DNA of 64,000 bases from an uncultured Candidatus Saccharibacteria bacterium (GTDB lineage Bacteria > Patescibacteriota > Minisyncoccia > Sungbacterales > HO2-52-23): the NCBI GenBank assembly GCA_964585475.1, contig CAZPDF010000001.1:1441-65440 (forward strand), given 5' to 3'. The position numbers and the translations under genes are program-made. Below are positions 1,816-59,557 of this stretch, one piece after another. The notes under the pieces are model-generated. The model saw nothing but the letters and a program-made list of their open reading frames with translations, was not told where the DNA came from and ran no database searches. The stretch's first letter is position 1. The number at the start of each line of letters is the position of its first letter.

Positions 1816-2241
1816 TCATGTCTTTTTCCTGTCCTTTTCCATTTCAGCAGTTTCAACCGCATAGACTGCCTTATGCAGTCTTCCATTTTCTAAGTCGGTG
1901 GGAAGGTTATAGCCGTAACAACTTGAGCCTGGTATTACTGGTTTCCACCCCGCCTTTTCGTATATGGAGTAGGCAGGATCATTTTCGGCAATTGAATTGA
2001 ATAGGAGACCCGCCTTTTTCCGTAAATCAAGAAAGTGATTAAGTTCGTTGAGAATATCTTTCCCAAATCCTTGGTTTCTCGCGTGTGGTAAAACAAACAC
2101 CAGTTTTATGTAATAAAACGGGAATGGGCTGTTTCTATATTCTAAATTTGCGAAGCCGACCATATCGCCTTCTGTCTGTAGTTCAATACGATGTATTTTC
2201 CCCTCTGTCGCGGGAGGTTTAAGGTGTTCAAATTCTTTCAT
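1816..2241 (-). CDS. GNAT family N-acetyltransferase
   Basis: 141-aa ORF with an acetyl-CoA binding motif in ARNQGFGKDILNEL (Q/R-x-x-G-x-G/A) and a typical GNAT size. Confidence 0.75.
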   Translation of the reverse strand: MKEFEHLKPPATEGKIHRIELQTEGDMVGFANLEYRNSPFPFYYIKLVFVLPHARNQGFGKDILNELNHFLDLRKKAGLLFNSIAENDPAYSIYEKAGWKPVIPGSSCYGYNLPTDLENGRLHKAVYAVETAEMEKDRKKT

Positions 2242-2283
2242 AATTTTTTAGCCAATTAGGCCTCTCGACAAAAAGTTATTTAC

Positions 2284-2330
2284 CGGCGAGGGGAGGATTC
2301 GAACCTCCGGTACCATTGTTGGTACACCTG
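2284..2330 (-). other. tRNA-Ser-like 3' fragment (variable arm, T arm, acceptor strand)
   Basis: Minus strand reads GGTGTACCAACAATGGTACC-GGAGGTTCGAATCCTCC-CCTCGCC-G. No adjacent 5' half is present. The strand CCTCGCC could pair with GGTGGGG at 2914..2920 using two G:U pairs. It is preceded by a local hairpin CGATTTGT-TG-CCAAAATTTC...GAAATTTTGG-ACAAATCG. Confidence 0.4.
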
Positions 2331-2434
2331 TTTTTTCCCGATTTGTCCAAAATTTCGATTCAATTTGAAGAAGAAATTTTGGCAACAAATCGCAATCCCG
2401 TTCAAAACGGAGGCGAGAGGATTTGAACCTCTGA

Positions 2435-2548
2435 GGGGATTTCGGTTGCCTTCTCGGCAAACCCCAGGGCCGACTTTTGTAAAACGTTCGCAAGGCGCAC
2501 TTAAATAAAGTAGTCGGCCCGCGAAACGATCGGTAATCGTTTCGCCCA
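2435..2548 (-). repeat. three-hairpin structured element, copy 1 (in the variable region of the outer tRNA-Ser)
   Basis: Minus strand reads TGGGCGAAACGATTACCGATCGTTTCGC-GGGCCGACT...TGCGAACGT...AGTCGGCCC-TGGGGTTTGCCGAGAAGGCAACCGAAATCCCC. It shares the blocks TGGGCGAAA, TTTCGCGGG, TGCGAACGT, CCCTGGG, TTTGCCGA and GAAGGCAA with copy 2. Confidence 0.65.
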
Positions 2549-2583
2549 GCCGGTTTCTTGCCCCGCACTAAAATTTGGATTTT

Positions 2584-2670
2584 CGGAAGCGGGAGGATTC
2601 GAACCTCCGATACGGTTTCCCGTATAACGGTTTTCGAGACCGTCCCATTCAACCACTCTGGCACGCTTCC
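2584..2670 (-). tRNA. tRNA-Ser(CGA)
   Basis: Hand-folded cloverleaf: GGAAGCG-TG-CCAGAGTGGTTGAATGGG-ACGGT-CTCGAAA-ACCGT-TATACGGGAAACCGTATC-GGAGGTTCGAATCCTCC-CGCTTCC-G. It has a long variable arm. No CCA is encoded. Confidence 0.85.
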
Positions 2671-2751
2671 AAATTTTTAGTGCGGGGTCGAGACCGGCGC
2701 TTTAGACCACTCAGCCACGCCTCCGTTTTGTCCGGGACGAGACCGTCCCAT

Positions 2752-2848
2752 TGTTTTGCCTTCGTCGGCAAAACCCAGGGAAATTTTTTACGTTCGCACG
2801 GCTCCGCCGGCTCGCTAAATTTCCCGCGAAAGTCTATAGCTTTCGCCC
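2752..2848 (-). repeat. three-hairpin structured element, copy 2 (in the D loop of a truncated tRNA-Ser-like fragment)
   Basis: Minus strand reads GCCAGAGTGG-[GCGAAAGCTATAGACTTTCGC-GGGAAATTT...GTGCGAACGTAAAAAATTTCCC-TGGGTTTTGCCGACGAAGGCAAAACA]-ATGGGACGGTCTCG. The flanks match the D arm and anticodon stem of the intact tRNA-Ser (GCCAGAGTGGTTGAATGGGACGGTCTCG). Confidence 0.65.
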
Positions 2849-2862
2849 ACTCTGGCATCCCG

Positions 2863-2920
2863 CCAAATTTTTAGTGCGGGGTCGAGACCGGCGCTTTCAA
2901 TCGGACTCAGCCACCCCACC
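2863..2920 (-). other. orphan tRNA-Ser-like 5' half plus helix arm
   Basis: Minus strand reads GGTGGGG-TG-GCTGAGTCCGATTGAAAGC-G-CCGGT-CTCGA-CCCCGCACTAAAAATTTGG. This is the same layout as the 5' part of the outer Ser gene at 2688..2724, but no matching second arm follows it. Confidence 0.45.
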
Positions 2921-2935
2921 CCAAGGCGCTAGCTC

Positions 2936-2964
2936 AAAATAGCATTTTTTTCTTGAAAATTCAA
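2936..2964 (-). promoter_or_regulatory. candidate sigma-70 promoter for the tRNA array
   Basis: Minus strand has TTGAAT, a 17-nt spacer, then TATTTT, ending about 15 nt upstream of the first tRNA-like 5' end at 2920. Confidence 0.45.
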
Positions 2965-3031
2965 CCGGCCGCCCTGCCGAAGGCACGGCTACGGCCGCCT
3001 TGGGGCGACCTGCCTCTAACGGGGTCAATGT

Positions 3032-3057
3032 AAAACCCCGTGCTGTGAGGACGGGGT
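3032..3057 (-). terminator. intrinsic terminator after the gene 3066..3938
   Basis: Minus strand has ACCCCGT-cctcacagc-ACGGGGT followed by TTTT. A third copy of the stem half at 3019..3025 allows an alternative pairing. Confidence 0.6.
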
Positions 3058-3065
3058 CGTAAGTA

Positions 3066-3938
3066 TTACTTGAATTCCCAGATAATGCCGGCGCCGATTT
3101 CCATCTCTCGCTTGTTCCCATGGTTCTCGTTAAGTTTGCCGCTCGGGTCAAGGTTTAGCAGGAAACTGTAGTTTCCGCTCAAGCGTAGCGCCAAGCCGTT
3201 AAGGCCTTTGGGAAAGTGGAGGTGCTTACCGAGGTAATATGTAGCGGCAGGAGAGATGCCTATTCGCCGCATCTCAAGGGACCGGTCAAGGTATGCGGAA
3301 GGAGCCAGCGCAAGTTCGATATACTCGGTCGGCCGATAGTAACTGCGGAGCCCCACTTCCATGGTCATGGGGTTTTTATGCTCGGTGGTGGTTATATTGG
3401 TTGCCGGCATGTCGGAGATGATATGGTAGCGGCCGCATCCGTCAATGAGAAAATCTGGGCTGCCAAGAAGTTTCGCACAGGCGCCGATCCAGTGGGTTTT
3501 CGCCCCCCAATCCGGGTTTTTCTCGCCGATATTGTGCATTCTGCGGGTTCCGAGCTCCAGCCGCACCATTTTGAGGAATGCGGGAGTATAGCCGAGTTCT
3601 CCGCCCCAATCAATGCGGTCCGGTGCGTCTGTGCCGGTCAGGAGAGCGAGATCAATGTATGCCTCGAATTTACCCCACTGCGGATCCTCAAAGAAGCGAT
3701 ACTGCGTCTGCATTCCAAGTTTACGGGTCGGGCTCTTTTGGGCATCTCTAACTTTGGTATCAAGCTGTAGCATCCGGTTGTTAAAGACGGACCACTCGTG
3801 GGAAAGTTCGAAACGAAGCGCAGGATCCTGATCCCACCTAATCCCAGAGTATGGCTCGTATGCCGAGGTGTTCGAAAAGGCCAGCAACACGGCCAAAACA
3901 GCGAAAATCGAGGCAAAACGAAGGTAATTCTTGCTCAC
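3066..3938 (-). CDS. secreted hypothetical protein, possibly a beta-barrel
   Basis: 290-aa ORF with a signal peptide (MSKNYLRFASIFAVLAVLLAFSNTSA). It has alternating hydrophobic/polar stretches rich in Y/G/W and a C-terminal GAGIIWEFK. The fold assignment is only an impression. Confidence 0.65.
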   Translation of the reverse strand: MSKNYLRFASIFAVLAVLLAFSNTSAYEPYSGIRWDQDPALRFELSHEWSVFNNRMLQLDTKVRDAQKSPTRKLGMQTQYRFFEDPQWGKFEAYIDLALLTGTDAPDRIDWGGELGYTPAFLKMVRLELGTRRMHNIGEKNPDWGAKTHWIGACAKLLGSPDFLIDGCGRYHIISDMPATNITTTEHKNPMTMEVGLRSYYRPTEYIELALAPSAYLDRSLEMRRIGISPAATYYLGKHLHFPKGLNGLALRLSGNYSFLLNLDPSGKLNENHGNKREMEIGAGIIWEFK

Positions 3939-9038: not shown

Positions 9039-9040
9039 GG

Positions 9041-9150
9041 TGGGCAGTGAAGGAATCGAACCCCGTAGCAGAACCTTCGGTTCGCTACGGGGCAGGCCTA
9101 CGGCCTTCGCGGTGTAAACGCGACGCTCTTCCGGGGATTCTTCTATTTCG
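9041..9150 (-). pseudogene. degenerate tRNA-Val(TAC)-like remnant with a hairpin inserted in the T arm
   Basis: Minus strand reads ...GGAAGAGCGTCGCGTTTACACCGCGAAGGCC..., which matches the anticodon arm of the neighbouring tRNA-Val. It then continues CCCCGTAGC-GAACCGAAGGTTCT-GCTACGGGG-TTCGATTCCTTC-ACTGCCC-A. The T-stem strand GAAGG is trapped in the loop of a 9-bp hairpin, and no matching 5' acceptor strand (GGGCAGT) is present. Confidence 0.4.
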
Positions 9151-9159
9151 AGTGTAAAT

Positions 9160-9740: not shown

Positions 9741-9822
9741 AAGTGTAACGGGGCAAGCTACCGCCTAATTTGATGAATTAGGCGAGCCTCGCTCAGCTTT
9801 GATGAGCGGGAGCCAAACGCCC

Positions 9823-10791: not shown

Positions 10792-11562
10792 TTATGGGGA
10801 TTGAATTTTTATGGCGTACGCGTGTTGCTTAAGCGTTTGGGCCGCTGACTTCAGCTTTTCTTGGTGGTGAGGGAAAAGATCTTTTAGGATTTCGGGATCA
10901 AGCTCAAAAATGAGCGCTGCATGCCCCACTATCGGCGCGGCATATGAAGGGTACATTTCCAGCGTTGCTGAATTGGTTGGAACGAACTCGTCTTTTTCGG
11001 CGCGTATCTGAAGGAGCTTCCGGGGATTATTTTGGATATCCTCCCGGAGTTTTGCCAGCCATTTCGAGTCCGGTCGGATTTGGCGCGCGGCCTCATGCCA
11101 GAAGACGAAACGCGCAAGGGATGATCCTCGAAAAGGCGTGCCTGCGGTGACTACCTGGAAGTGCATAAGCTCCGGGTCGCGTGCTTGAGCGGCAAGGATT
11201 ATGAGTCCTCCCATGCTGTGCCCCAAGAACACGAGGTCTTTTTCAAGGTCAGTAAGCCGCAGGCCGTATTTTTGATGCAATCTCTCTTCTTGTTTCGTGA
11301 GAAATTTGTCAAAGCGTGCTGTGAGGGTATCAATGTCTTTTCTCGCCCAGCCGGTGTCGGCGATGACCACATTAAACCCCGCATTCCCCAGCCGCGCACG
11401 CAACGGAAGCATGACCGACGGAGTTCCTCCGAGGCCATAGGCCAGAATTATATTGGGCCTTGTCGGATCAAGCTCGTTTTCTGGAATTGGTATAAGGGAG
11501 CCCGGAAAAAGGAGCAGGAGATACGAGAAAATATAGACCGCTTCTTTAATCCACTCAAACAC
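10792..11562 (-). CDS. alpha/beta hydrolase (lipase/esterase-like)
   Basis: 256 aa with an N-terminal TM/signal segment, the nucleophile elbow FLGHSMGG, and a His near the C-terminus (VGHAAL). Confidence 0.75.
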   Translation of the reverse strand: MFEWIKEAVYIFSYLLLLFPGSLIPIPENELDPTRPNIILAYGLGGTPSVMLPLRARLGNAGFNVVIADTGWARKDIDTLTARFDKFLTKQEERLHQKYGLRLTDLEKDLVFLGHSMGGLIILAAQARDPELMHFQVVTAGTPFRGSSLARFVFWHEAARQIRPDSKWLAKLREDIQNNPRKLLQIRAEKDEFVPTNSATLEMYPSYAAPIVGHAALIFELDPEILKDLFPHHQEKLKSAAQTLKQHAYAIKIQSP

Positions 11563-11788: not shown

Positions 11789-11976
11789 TGGCCCCAATGG
11801 GATTCGAACCCATGTACTGGGCTCTTGCCCTCCCACTTTTTTGTTTGCCGCCACCGGGATTCGAACCCGGGTACCGGGCTTGAAAAGCCCGTGTCCTAGA
11901 CCAAGCTAGACGATGGCGGCGTCAAAAGTGGGAGGGTGAAAAAAGCCCATGTCCTAGGCCTCTAGACGATGGGGCC
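11789..11976 (-). other. interrupted (outer) tRNA-Glu-like gene enclosing tRNA-Glu 11846..11920
   Basis: Minus strand reads GGCCCCA-TC-GTCTAGAGGCCTAGGAC-A-TGGGC-TTTTTTCA-[CCCTCCCACTTTT-gac-inner tRNA-aacaa-AAAAGTGGGAGGG]-CAAGA-GCCCA-GTAC-ATGGGTTCGAATCCCAT-TGGGGCC-A. The acceptor, anticodon and T stems of the outer molecule are perfectly paired, and the D stem pairs with one G:U. Confidence 0.55.
11846..11920 (-). tRNA. tRNA-Glu(TTC)
   Basis: GCCGCCA-TC-GTCTAGCTTGGTCTAGGAC-A-CGGGC-TTTTCAA-GCCCG-GTAC-CCGGGTTCGAATCCCGG-TGGCGGC-A. Confidence 0.9.
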
Positions 11977-28527: not shown

Positions 28528-28568
28528 GGCGCAATCGGAGAAAATCTGCTAGATTATATGGCATAAGT

Positions 28569-28749
<181 letters not shown>

Positions 28750-37132: not shown

Positions 37133-37159
37133 CCATTTCTCAATTTTTGTGTTATGTTT

Positions 37160-37182
37160 AAAATCGCCTATAGGGCGATTTT
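37160..37182 (+). terminator. intrinsic terminator after ftsX
   Basis: aaaatcgcc-tata-gggcgatttt. Confidence 0.65.
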
Positions 37183-37190
37183 AAGTTTAT

Positions 37191-37261
37191 TCCGGGGTCG
37201 TCTAACGGTAGGACACATGCCTCTGGAGCATGGTATCTTGGTTCGATTCCAGGCCCCGGAG
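37191..37261 (+). tRNA. tRNA-Gln(CTG)
   Basis: TCCGGGG-TC-GTCTAACGGTAGGAC-A-CATGC-CTCTGGA-GCATG-GTAT-CTTGGTTCGATTCCAGG-CCCCGGA-G. Confidence 0.9.
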
Positions 37262-37285
37262 TTTTGTGCGGGAGACGCGGAAATT

Positions 37286-37396
37286 GGGGGCAAAACGCAA
37301 AATGCTTTGCGTTTTGCGGGACTGCTACATTAAATCCGCGAGCTAACGAGCGTAAAAAATAAAGGCAGTCCCGGGAATTTGTGAAGGAACAAATTG
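37286..37396 (+). repeat. three-hairpin structured element, copy 3 (immediately 3' of tRNA-Gln)
   Basis: GGGGGCAAAACGCAAAATGCTTTGCGTTTTGC-GGGACTGC...GCGAGCTAACGAGCGTAAAAAATAAAGGCAGTCCC-GGGAATTTGTGAAGGAACAAATT. It shares TTT(C/T)GCGGGA, CGA(A/G)CGTAAAAAAT, TCCC(T/G)GG and the GAAGG hairpin loop with copy 2. It is followed at 37396..37416 by TTGATTCTCTGTCCCGGAGTTTT, an imperfect duplicate of the tRNA-Gln 3' end TTCGATTCCAGGCCCCGGAGTTTT. The 11-nt perfect direct repeat CCCGGAGTTTT lies at 37255..37265 and 37406..37416. Confidence 0.6.
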
Positions 37397-37432
37397 ATTC
37401 TCTGTCCCGGAGTTTTATGATAGAACTTATCT

Positions 37433-37759
37433 ATGGAAAACCCAATTGAAAAAGGCCCTGAACGGATCCTGACAAAAGAAGACGTCATGGAGGTTATTGC
37501 TCGTCATGCGGAAAATGCTATCCTCGTTCGAGAGTTGTCTGACGAGCAGGGACTCTACTTACTTGAAGTAAAAGTAGAAGGCAAAGAGTCCGATGAAATT
37601 ATCCAATATCAATATATGAGGAAAGGAAGGTTCCCAAACCACAACGAAGCATCAGAAACTGCTATTCATGCTGTGTATTATCAAGGTGAAACGCCAGTTG
37701 GTGGAGATAAAATTGCTGTTTATAAATCTGAAATGGGGGGCTGGGAAGAAGTAGAATAA
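37433..37759 (+). CDS. hypothetical protein
   Basis: 108-aa ORF with no recognisable motif. Confidence 0.55.
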   Translation: MENPIEKGPERILTKEDVMEVIARHAENAILVRELSDEQGLYLLEVKVEGKESDEIIQYQYMRKGRFPNHNEASETAIHAVYYQGETPVGGDKIAVYKSEMGGWEEVE

Positions 37760-42441: not shown

Positions 42442-43080
42442 ATGGAATATTTTATAGGAATAGATCTTGCAGGGCTAATCGAAACCGTTGGCTATATCGG
42501 TATTTTTGCAATTGTATTTGCCGAATCAGGACTCCTGATAGGTTTTTTCCTGCCCGGTGACTCCCTGCTTTTTACGGCGGGGATTCTTGCATCGCAGGGA
42601 TATTTCAATATCGCGATATTGACGTTTCTTTGTTTTGCGGGAGCAGTTTTGGGCGATTCTTTTGGGTATGCTTTTGGCAGAAAAGCCGGACCGAAAATTT
42701 TTACGAAAGAGGATTCAATTCTTTTTCACAAATCTCATCTTGAGCGAGCCCGGCGGTATTATGAGAAGCATGGCGGGAAAACGATTATTCTTGCGCGTTT
42801 TGTACCGATCGTCCGTACGTTTGCGCCGATTCTCGCGGGAGTTGGCGGCATGCACTACAAGACCTTTCTGTCGTACAATGTTTTCGGCGGCCTTATCTGG
42901 GGGGCTGGCCTCACGCTCCTTGGGTATTTTCTCGGGAGCGTGATTCCGGACGTTGACCGCTTTTTTTTTCCTCTTATTGCCTCGATTATAGTTTTATCAT
43001 TCCTTCCGCCGGTTATACATGTGCTGCGTGATAAAGAGGAGAGGAGACAGATTTTAAAATTTTTAAAAATGAGAAAATAG
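42442..43080 (+). CDS. DedA/VTT-domain family membrane protein
   Basis: GLLIGFFLPGDSLLFTAGILA...ILARFVPIVRTFAPILAG. This is the second DedA paralog, again directly downstream of an ABC system. Confidence 0.85.
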   Translation: MEYFIGIDLAGLIETVGYIGIFAIVFAESGLLIGFFLPGDSLLFTAGILASQGYFNIAILTFLCFAGAVLGDSFGYAFGRKAGPKIFTKEDSILFHKSHLERARRYYEKHGGKTIILARFVPIVRTFAPILAGVGGMHYKTFLSYNVFGGLIWGAGLTLLGYFLGSVIPDVDRFFFPLIASIIVLSFLPPVIHVLRDKEERRQILKFLKMRK

Positions 43081-43095
43081 ATTACTATTTAGGTG

Positions 43096-43209
43096 GCCCA
43101 CGCACTAATTTCGTAAAGATGTTTATCTTATTGCGGTTAAACATTCGTGGTATCGCCTCCGGCTTACCTAGAGGCCAATAAATACTTATTGCTAAAATTA
43201 GTGCGGGGC
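43096..43209. repeat. CCCCGC-terminated long palindromic element
   Basis: Arms are gcccacgcactaattt / aaattagtgcggggc with one mismatch. The interior contains tcgcctccggctt, identical to 13 nt of the outer tRNA-like 3' end at 28737..28749. Confidence 0.6.
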
Positions 43210-43267
43210 ATAAGTTTTGTATCCAAAATTTCTTCGCTTAAGGGCTTTAAATTTTGGACAAAGCCTT

Positions 43268-59306: not shown

Positions 59307-59557
59307 GGCGCGGTTTCTTCTTTATTGGGCAGGCCTCGGCATATCGCCTCGAAAAGACGCTCGCCGCGCTTAAACTTTTAAACATTTAAACTTTCCCGGC
59401 TCGCTAAGGTTCCGGCCGCCATGAATTAGTTACCAGTTACCATTTGTTATTCGGGCGGCCTCCATATTCTTTTCTCGGCAACATGCCTCGACCTGCGCGA
59501 TTGTTCGACCGCGCCAAACCATCCGTCTATGTTAATAAACTAGGATAGAAGTAAGAG

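Follow-up and report, generated by a model that had tools for sequence, protein, structure and literature searches.

Insertions in the tRNA genes of Patescibacteria were the subject of a single paper, on group I introns, in our full-text searches, and tRNA introns are abundant in this phylum (PMC13011429). In archaea, non-canonical and apparently mobile introns as well as split tRNAs have been described from Thermoproteales and Nanoarchaeum (reviewed in PMC4090602 and PMC4390854). Gain by transposition is evidenced for archaeal tRNA introns. Integrative elements reportedly target tRNA and tmRNA genes and restore the gene from a copy of their own, an account attributed to Williams in 2002. Neither nested tRNA genes nor the three-hairpin element analyzed here are described in the literature covered by these searches. 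The element was found in a stretch of 64,000 nt, called the window throughout, in which an earlier note had proposed three copies of a structured, mobile sequence with tRNA genes as targets.

Family, structure and strand of the three-hairpin element

The window is identical to ENA contig ERZ27284378:k139_393244. Its host is bacterial, as PBP1A, GatB, ClpB, sigma-70, IF-2 and a DUF5667 family protein are encoded, and its GatB is 64-76% identical to proteins named Candidatus Sungbacteria or Patescibacteria in their sources. Sungbacteria are tiny groundwater bacteria.

The three copies were recovered by a covariance model (CM) where the earlier note had placed them (Table 1). Their pairwise identity is only 44-57% or 48-57%, and the shared architecture and sequence blocks hold up: the folds reach z values of -4.2 to -5.7 against dinucleotide shuffles, the copies have GG-H1, TTYGCGGG, CGARCGT with an A-rich run and CCCNGG-H3 in common, and the core pattern GCGGG..CGARCG..CCCNGG occurs three times in the window, compared with 0.07 times expected by chance. 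The element is non-coding and 96-113 nt long (typically ~100 nt). It consists of GG, hairpin H1, a directly adjoining long hairpin H2 with a GGG...CCC stem, a short NGG(R) linker and hairpin H3, whose loop is purine-rich (GANGRR).

Further copies turned up in other genomes. A strict element pattern gave 10 matches in JGI metagenomes, three of them real (L010, L015 and L016, on JGI and ENA metagenome contigs), and no real copy in 185,579 GTDB species genomes, where the two matches were GC-rich, coding and due to chance. The first covariance model was built from six copies, and the relatives searched with it were obtained through GatB and FtsX homologues; it scored 61 bits in L019, 55 bits in L021 and 90 bits in L035, which is identical to L036. 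The models thus detect nine copies in six genomes, six of them beyond the window in five other Sungbacteria contigs, and the 923-kb NCBI record CP066690 is among the carriers. Two divergent relatives, the L024 unit and unit 2 of L035, were found via alignment only and match window copies 1 and 3, so that the known membership is only about 11 with these two included. A second covariance model found no additional copies in ~320 kb of Sungbacteria DNA, and none in that DNA lies away from tRNA or tmRNA sequence. Two scans of viral contigs gave nothing or one chance match in a coding region, and a blastn query with copy 2 returned no match among phage and plasmid records.

Stem sequences differ between copies while pairing is kept, as the earlier note had read by eye. 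Among eight copies, 97% of the H1/H2 cells pair, and sliding the 3' partners lowers this share to 24-60%. Changes on both sides are seen in 10 of the 17 pairs, and none of 500 shuffles reached the observed covariation values. The H3 stems also vary with pairing kept (GUUUUGCC/GGCAAAAC, GUUUCGCC/GGUGAAAC, AUCGUGCU/AGCAUGAU and AAUUUGU/ACAAAUU); here covariation was taken from individual folds, since MAFFT on H3 alone failed to place the loop gaps. The unpaired parts that are invariant or nearly so comprise the GG before H1, the CGGG of the H1-H2 junction, CGARCGU with the A-rich run in the interior of H2, CCC-NGG, and GANGRR. The similarity of the H1 5' arm to the H3 3' arm, considered as possible terminal direct repeats, was no better than in shuffles.

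The fold is more stable on the tRNA-sense strand than on the antisense strand in all nine copies, by 0.5 to 13.7 kcal/mol, and the sense strand has 16 G.U pairs compared with five on the antisense strand. Together, these two asymmetries indicate that the structure is selected on one strand, and they favor the tRNA-sense strand as the structured one. A sigma-70 promoter scan of positions 2150-3100 gave zero sites. The stems are near-perfect in every copy, including those in decayed "shells", as we call the disabled tRNA duplicates that host the element, and this fits either youth of the copies or purifying selection in place, i.e., a function for the host.

A host-beneficial structured RNA that is not mobile and spreads only with tRNA cassettes might be considered. 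It could be a small RNA liberated from a pre-tRNA transcript, or it could act as an insulator or a processing module which would stop disabled tRNA halves from folding into a chargeable tRNA-like form or mispairing with the working tRNA. Stems that stay intact while shells decay, conserved loop and internal-loop nucleotides and the sense-strand-specific structure agree with such a role, as do the constant proximity to an expressed tRNA, the use of H2 in L024 as the leader-trailer stem of a working tRNA, and insertions that strike tRNA recognition features, namely G19 and G53 at the elbow and the variable arm of tRNA-Ser. We nevertheless consider this explanation unlikely, as the distribution is sporadic, with the element missing from syntenic loci and from most shells, and no copy was found among GTDB species representatives with the strict pattern. 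Additionally, divergent copies coexist within one genome, yet one subtype is near-identical across unrelated genomes, and L035 holds a tandem duplicate.

Insertion sites and nested tRNA genes

All nine copies are oriented in sense with their host, and eight of them lie in a loop of a disabled tRNA copy. Five are found in the D loop after G18G19, following (A/G)TGG (window copy 2, L010, L016, L021 and L035), two in the T loop after G53 (window copy 3 and L019), and one in a variable-arm loop of tRNA-Ser (window copy 1). The ninth, in L015, is next to a tmRNA gene, in the stretch that separates this gene from a repeat of its own 3' end. Wherever the host can be read it is a disabled duplicate next to a working gene of the same kind. 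The proposal of a mobile, structured element directed at tRNA genes is thus upheld as far as structure, lack of coding capacity, gain and loss, and location in tRNA sequence (8/9) are concerned, and is to be corrected in that the hosts are disabled duplicates.

Copy 1 replaces ~2 nt in the variable-arm loop of the tRNA-Ser(CGA) shell B. Its empty site is seen in the orthologous working tRNA-Ser(CGA) of L024 and L021, in which the variable arm TGGGGA-GNAA-TCCCC is intact. The variable-arm position had been recognized correctly by the earlier note; its host, described there as the outer tRNA-Ser, is one disabled layer of a nest four deep. Copy 2 does lie in the D loop of a Ser-like fragment, after AGTGG in the relic shell C, and the orthologous shell C of L024 has an uninterrupted D loop. 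This copy is 83-89% identical to L010, L015 and L016 in local BLAST alignments; in the model alignment, type 2 copies are 72-87% identical, and their host loci range from 42 to 55% GC (the genomes from 42 to 57%) and have no other DNA in common. Copy 3 separates G53 from T54 in a tRNA-Gln relic, and its flanks GAAATTGGGG|..|TTGATTCTCTGTCCCGGAG match GAAATTGGGGTTCGATTCCCTGTCCCCGAG in the working tRNA-Gln of L029. In L031, tRNA-Gln is directly followed by the next gene and the whole block is absent. As the insert is missing at orthologous loci of relatives, the element has been both gained and lost. The syntenic loci of L024, L031, L032 and L037 are without it, as are most shells, and L035 carries two units in tandem.

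The left flank ends in GG in all copies and in NTGG in 6/9. Comparison with empty sites shows 0-3 missing target nucleotides and no target duplication; the element ends are fuzzy and have no terminal inverted repeat. Absence of a target duplication, fixed orientation and the constant GG (NTGG in 6/9) would fit a hairpin transposon that lacks a gene of its own and moves as single-stranded DNA with an HUH/Y1 enzyme in trans, similar to IS200/IS605-derived palindrome-associated elements or REP/REPIN sequences; the RNA structure would then be incidental. Hairpins at both ends, the strand-specific structure with tolerated G.T pairs and the sporadic distribution are also in line with this. However, H1 begins 0-1 nt from the junction, which leaves no room for an IS608-type guide sequence and spacer, and target nucleotides are lost at some sites. 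An NTGG target would be expected genome-wide, yet no copy departs from tRNA or tmRNA sequence or its immediate vicinity. The loci examined, including the scanned window ORFs, showed no Y1 transposase, and the conserved H2 interior is left unexplained, which makes such a transposon quite improbable. A Pfam search of 30 of the larger window ORFs linked no transposase, integrase, reverse transcriptase or endonuclease to the element.

Copy 3 is accompanied by an 11-nt repeat, CCCGGAGTTTT, at 37255-37265 and 37406-37416. The repeat lies where the earlier note had located it; it had been likened to an att-type duplication, and its second copy is instead the 3' end of the relic. An integrase island with att duplication was rejected, as only 143-270 nt and no gene lie between the repeats of copy 3 and L015. 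That the family is a chance similarity, an assembly artefact or a leftover of integrase islands in tRNA genes appears extremely improbable: covariance-model E-values range from 1e-17 to 1e-38, covariation is strong, the copies come from independent ENA, JGI, NCBI and Logan assemblies, and no tRNA duplication flanks the copies in D loops and in the variable arm. What could be cited for this view are the tRNA 3'-end duplications that flank window copy 3 and the L015 copy, and breaks in Logan contigs at window positions 2434 and 37224.

The tRNA-Ser locus is a nest four deep, with tRNA-Ser genes separated by inverted repeats (Table 1). On the minus strand the order is fragment A, CCCCGCACTAAAAATTT, the 5' part of shell C with copy 2, TCCCGGACAAAAC, the 5' half of shell B and again CCCCGCACTAAAAATTT, followed by the working tRNA D, AAATTTTAGTGCGGGG-CAAG, the 3' half of shell B with copy 1, GTTTTGAACGGGA, a long hairpin and the 3' part of shell C. 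The repeats AAATTTTAGTGCGGGG/CCCCGCACTAAAAATTT form a helix of 15 bp around tRNA D. Fragment A and its repeat (2865..2922) are 87% identical to the 5' half of shell B plus repeat. Earlier states of the nest are present in relatives, with B alone in L021 and C enclosing B in L024.

Table 1. Positions of the element copies and of the surrounding tRNA features in the window.
Feature	Position	Strand	Basis or remark
Copy 1, three-hairpin element	2441..2549	-	CM R1 83.6 bits, E 1e-26; fold -48 kcal/mol, z -4.9
Copy 1, element proper	about 2445-2545	-	
Copy 2, three-hairpin element, "type 2" subfamily	2752..2850	-	CM 101 bits
Copy 3, three-hairpin element	37286..37398	+	CM 73.5 bits; fold z -5.7
Shell C 3' part, decayed	about 2284-2336	-	same layout in L024
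Long hairpin	about 2339-2392	-	same layout in L024
Repeat GTTTTGAACGGGA	2396-2408	-	same layout in L024
Shell B 3' half, tRNA-Ser(CGA): anticodon-stem 3' strand, variable arm with copy 1, T arm, acceptor CGCCTCC	2408..2556	-	read from sequence
Right inverted repeat AAATTTTAGTGCGGGG + CAAG	2557..2576	-	partner of CCCCGCACTAAAAATTT at 2671-2687
D, working tRNA-Ser(CGA), innermost in nest	2584..2670	-	ARAGORN; Rfam tRNA 57.5 bits
Left inverted repeat CCCCGCACTAAAAATTT, flanked by tRNA D and shell B 5' half	2671..2687	-	
Shell B 5' half (GGAGGCG ... CCGGT CTCGA)	2688..2724	-	
Repeat TCCCGGACAAAAC, after shell C 5' part	2725-2737	-	
Older shell C, 5' part (GGCGGGATGCCAGAGTGG, copy 2, AATGGGACGGTCTCG)	2738..2864	-	orthologous shell in L024
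Second copy of CCCCGCACTAAAAATTT, after fragment A	2865-2881	-	
A, outermost tRNA-Ser 5' fragment	2882-2922	-	
Working tRNA-Gln(CTG), upstream of copy 3	37191..37261	+	ARAGORN, Rfam
GTGCGGG, repeat-like remnant and start of tRNA-Gln relic (GAAATTGGGG, 37280-37289)	37267..37289	+	
Remainder of tRNA-Gln relic (TTGATTCTCTGTCCCGGAG) + TTTT	37394..37416	+	second copy of the 11-nt repeat

Nesting is not restricted to this locus. Other nests or relics in the window involve tRNA-Glu, tRNA-Thr, tRNA-Val(GAC), tRNA-Val(TAC) and tRNA-Gln, the downstream relic of tRNA-Val(TAC) carrying a mini-hairpin at position 53/54, so that six of the eight window tRNA genes are enclosed or adjoined by older, disabled copies of themselves. 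Where both members of a nest can be read, the inner and the outer gene point the same way, and their anticodons are identical where the outer one is legible (Ser, Arg, and Val-GAC in L021). The unit of repeat plus CAAG is sometimes flipped relative to the nested genes (L021, L035). The inverted repeats were also considered as a general signal for pre-tRNA processing; many tRNAs in the same genomes are without repeats, and a general signal is therefore rejected. The disabled tRNA copies arise from this nesting of tRNA in tRNA between inverted repeats, a second phenomenon besides the element.

When CCCC...GGGGCAAG is removed from shell B, the 7-nt anticodon loop CT-CGA-AA is restored, and the same removal in L016 restores the loop CT-CCG-AA of the outer tRNA, where the inner gene is also a tRNA-Arg(CCG). 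With both inserts removed in silico, shell B becomes a normal tRNA-Ser(CGA), as called by ARAGORN, and the outer tRNA of L016 becomes a tRNA-Arg(CCG). These reconstructions would be compatible with a true intervening sequence that leaves the transcript through self-cleavage and ligation, or with the help of a protein endonuclease and an RtcB-like ligase. The outer tRNAs would then be functional, comparable to archaeal tRNAs that carry several introns. The sense orientation of all copies in tRNA loops and the abundance of introns in the phylum point the same way. Positions 19/20 and 53/54 and the variable loop are also non-canonical intron positions in Thermoproteales. Still, the hosts of window copy 3, L019, L021 and L010 are fragments incapable of yielding a tRNA, loop nucleotides are missing after removal in silico, no bulge-helix-bulge can be drawn at the junctions and, even at E up to 10, there is no match to a ribozyme family. 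Moreover, a working gene with the same anticodon lies alongside, so that nothing selects for splicing. An intron is very doubtful on these grounds.

Proposed mechanism and proposed link to tRNA cassettes

In L036, the gene of a large serine recombinase ends 4 nt before GTCAAAATTTAGTGACGGGG-CAGG, which abuts the T stem of tRNA-Val. This arrangement indicates that such repeats are the ends of a recombinase-bearing element, at least in L036. A 2-bp crossover by a serine recombinase was rejected for the nest junctions because no register fits both of them; the junction pattern X-TT-CA-CCC...GGG-CA-AG-Y is recurrent and is left unexplained by such crossover models.

The divergent unit of L024 lies in the D loop of a tRNA-Val relic. 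Apart from the loop, its H1 is the same as in window copy 1. The tip of its H2 is occupied by a complete, working tRNA-Val(TAC), on whose acceptor stem the inner stem of H2 stacks. Unit 2 of L035 has the same hairpin, closed by CACA and without a tRNA. Cargo in H2 is a single case, for which a secondary insertion could account. From the tRNA-Val at the tip of H2 we infer that the element family belongs to the nest-building tRNA-cassette system.

Considering the family, its structure, strand asymmetry, insertion sites and differences in presence and absence, our preferred reading, to which we assign a probability of roughly one half, is that the element represents a small family of mobile, non-coding, structured insertion modules specific for tRNA loops in Candidatus Sungbacteria. 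The module would enter single-stranded tRNA loops in sense orientation, i.e., the D loop, the T loop or a long variable arm, and would survive only in tRNA copies that are already dispensable, which might act as a "safe haven". These shells would be the remains of a resident tRNA gene overwritten by an incoming tRNA cassette. Mobility is probably provided in trans, and the moving intermediate may be either RNA or single-stranded DNA. The element is likely co-transcribed with the adjoining working tRNA, also at loci other than L024, so that its structure would be selected on that strand; in L024, H2 would serve as the leader-trailer stem of tRNA-Val.

A bolder version, which we regard as a long shot, is that cassettes systematically overwrite the tRNA genes of Sungbacteria, each recognizing its own cognate gene, with the element as the RNA or single-stranded part of this machinery. 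The element might then be a self-inserting or self-excising RNA module, a guide or a landing scaffold, which would carry a tRNA at its tip and steer insertion into the loops of the resident tRNA. Recognition of the cognate gene would account for the match between inner and outer gene in all nests with a legible outer anticodon. Bacteria would then possess a counterpart to the disruption of tRNA genes in archaea, with a mechanism of its own.

If our preferred reading of a mobile, tRNA-loop-specific module is correct, the element is a new small structured insertion element of bacteria, selected on one strand. Nesting of tRNA genes in disabled copies of themselves, an apparently undescribed arrangement, would add to the genome dynamics of ultra-small bacteria. 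Both bear on how essential single-copy tRNA genes can tolerate invasion without death of the host, on the practice of tRNA annotation in Patescibacteria and on the origin of disrupted, split or intron-bearing tRNA genes. With the large serine recombinase and the tRNA at a hairpin tip, the system is open to in vitro testing.

Comparison with known systems

The earlier note could not assign the element to a known ribozyme or intron class, and Rfam agrees with it. The element had no family match in the whole window at gathering score, and all 4227 families at E up to 10 gave only tRNA-related or noise matches in 2200-3000 and 37150-37480; nothing relevant was found at E up to 10 in 43040-43260. 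Small self-cleaving ribozymes (hammerhead, twister, twister-sister, pistol, hatchet, HDV-like and hairpin) gave no covariance-model match. The element is not itself a tRNA either, as neither ARAGORN nor RF00005 calls it and the H1 and H3 loops are without GG and TTCRA.

Group I tRNA introns resemble the element in being sporadic, structured, sense-oriented and mostly without a protein, in bacterial tRNA genes of the same phylum. However, they measure at least ~200 nt, have a P3-P9 core and self-splice from the anticodon loop of working genes, whereas the element is ~100 nt long and occupies D, T or variable loops of disabled copies only. A group I intron was rejected, as RF00028 has no match in the window, nor at E up to 10 in the element regions. 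Archaeal introns and split tRNAs are similar in their use of several cloverleaf positions (D, variable and T loops) and in the complementary flanks that join the halves. They need a bulge-helix-bulge motif and EndA and yield working tRNAs, while the element has a bacterial host, lacks the motif and lies in relics. By inspection, the junctions (AATGG|GCGAAA ... CAAAAC|GAGC and others) do not form a 4-bp helix with 3-nt bulges, and an intron of the archaeal type was rejected.

Similar to REP/REPIN, IS200/IS605-derived, BOX, Correia and ERIC sequences, the element is short, non-coding, hairpin-rich, non-autonomous and patchy, with structure that outlasts sequence. All of those sequences are found in normal intergenic regions and bear terminal inverted repeats or defined motifs at their ends, while the element is confined to tRNA and tmRNA sequence, is always in sense and has a conserved internal loop. 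A MITE was rejected because the ends GGGCGAAA... and ...GGCAAAAC do not constitute terminal inverted repeats and insertion entails a loss of 0-3 nt without duplication. The intervening sequences of 23S rRNA likewise swap terminal-loop nucleotides for an extended stem-loop and are sporadic and horizontally spread. Their host rRNA is functional, and RNase III excises them with no subsequent ligation, in contrast to the three hairpins in tRNA relics observed here; such an intervening sequence was rejected, as the assessable hosts are all tRNA relics that do not work.

Integrative elements that target tRNA genes also land in tRNA loops, leave displaced fragments beside a complete gene and use 53/54 and anticodon-loop sublocations. 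Unlike these elements, the three-hairpin module has no integrase. Furthermore, classical islands carry only the tRNA part downstream of the crossover and give rise to tandem fragments, whereas in Sungbacteria whole tRNA genes are nested within one another.

Nested tRNA genes and their relics

The tRNA-Ser(CGA) locus of the window is a four-deep nest of tRNA genes inside tRNA genes, in which CCCCGCACTAAAAWTTT-type inverted repeats set the layers apart and two tRNA-Ser sequence types alternate from layer to layer. In the compared records of relatives, the same locus holds layer B alone (L021) or layer C around B (L024). The nest and the related features are listed in the table below.

Nested tRNA genes and associated features in the window and in compared records
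Feature	Record	Coordinates	Strand
tRNA-Ser(CGA) nest, four deep, A > C > B > D (outermost to innermost; D, working gene)	window	2284-2922	(-)
tRNA-Val(TAC) and tRNA-Val(GAC) loci with relics	window	9040-9158 and 9742-9790	both (-)
tRNA-Glu(TTC) inside second tRNA-Glu	window	11789-11976	(-)
tRNA-Thr(CGT) (28618-28691) within decayed outer tRNA-Thr	window	28567-28749	(+)
tRNA-Gln locus: outer 5' three-quarters, up to G53, with working gene and flanking sequences	L029 (CP066690)	10985-11210	
Three-hairpin unit, working tRNA-Val(TAC) at central-hairpin tip	L024	9092-9282	(-)
Large serine recombinase gene (Resolvase, Recombinase, Zn_ribbon_recom)	L036	3325-5023	

The tRNA-Glu nest runs from the outer 5' half through CCCTCCCACTTTTGAC, the inner gene (11846-11920) and AAAAGTGGGAGGG-CAAG to the outer 3' half. 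The anticodon loop of the outer tRNA-Glu would be 9 nt, and the three-hairpin element is absent from this nest. The tRNA-Thr(CGT) gene is bracketed by CCCGTTAGAAA and TTTCTAACGG, and related Thr arrangements are present in L029 and L027. At the Val loci, a relic lies downstream of tRNA-Val(TAC) and consists of the 3' two-thirds of another tRNA-Val(TAC). A small hairpin cassette, CCTG-CCCCGTAGC...GCTACGGGG, sits in this relic exactly at its G53/T54 boundary. Upstream of tRNA-Val(GAC) lie the 5' end of a decayed shell and CTTG-CCCCGTTAC, which is a flipped repeat. In L029 the 5' part of a tRNA-Gln is followed in order by CCCGCCCCCACACTC, a working tRNA-Gln, a hairpin and GAGTGTGGGGG, while the 3' end of the outer tRNA-Gln is missing. 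In L035, unit 2 has a hairpin (about 1668-1757) that is homologous to the central hairpin of the L024 three-hairpin unit and is closed by CACA.

Logan contigs of run SRR8863434 break off at window positions 2434, about 10 nt 3' of three-hairpin copy 1, and 37224, within tRNA-Gln, and these breaks could stem from repeats or population variants at the two loci. Between ftsX and tRNA-Gln, an ORF with a faint LAGLIDADG match is found in L027 (6754-7344) and L028 (1387-2091), and the window has only a terminator at this place. Elsewhere in the window, a tRNA called by Rfam at 42 bits (16851-16922, minus strand) is missed by ARAGORN, and its acceptor 5' strand and anticodon loop (around TTTGGTA) look irregular.

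Repeat junctions and enclosed non-tRNA segments

Junctions of the CCCTCCCAC/CCCCGTTAG subfamily were compared at window 11937/11824, L021 about 5392/5276, L019 about 2371/2256 and L010 about 2385/2494. They read X-TT-CA|CCC...GGG|CA-AG-Y, whereas the intact tRNA reads X-CA-Y. A simple 2-bp crossover or target-duplication model fails to reproduce this pattern.

Inverted repeats of the nest kind, GCCC(A)CGCACTAATTT ... AAATTAGTGCGGGGC, also enclose about 85-90 nt that are not tRNA, at window 43096-43208, L027 16050-16160 and L021 7270-7400. In the window and L027, another long hairpin comes after the repeat and resembles that at window 2339-2392. The window site lies between VTT-domain and MFS genes, and the equivalent pair, assuming orthology, is directly adjacent in L029.

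An 86-nt stretch 3' of clpB (window 59334-59417, plus strand) is 80% identical to L010 1348-1431, which follows an apparent ribosomal protein L7/L12 gene, as judged by C-terminal residues. The shared stretch could be a conserved non-coding element.

A serine recombinase gene beside a nest-type repeat

The large serine recombinase gene of L036, a record from the same genome as L035, adjoins a DNA methylase gene and an HTH gene. Downstream lies GTCAAAATTTAGTGACGGGG-CAGG, which directly adjoins the T stem in a relic of tRNA-Val(TAC). Since the recombinase gene stops 4 nt upstream of GTCAAAATTTAGTGACGGGG-CAGG, the nest-type repeat there forms one end of an element that bears a recombinase.
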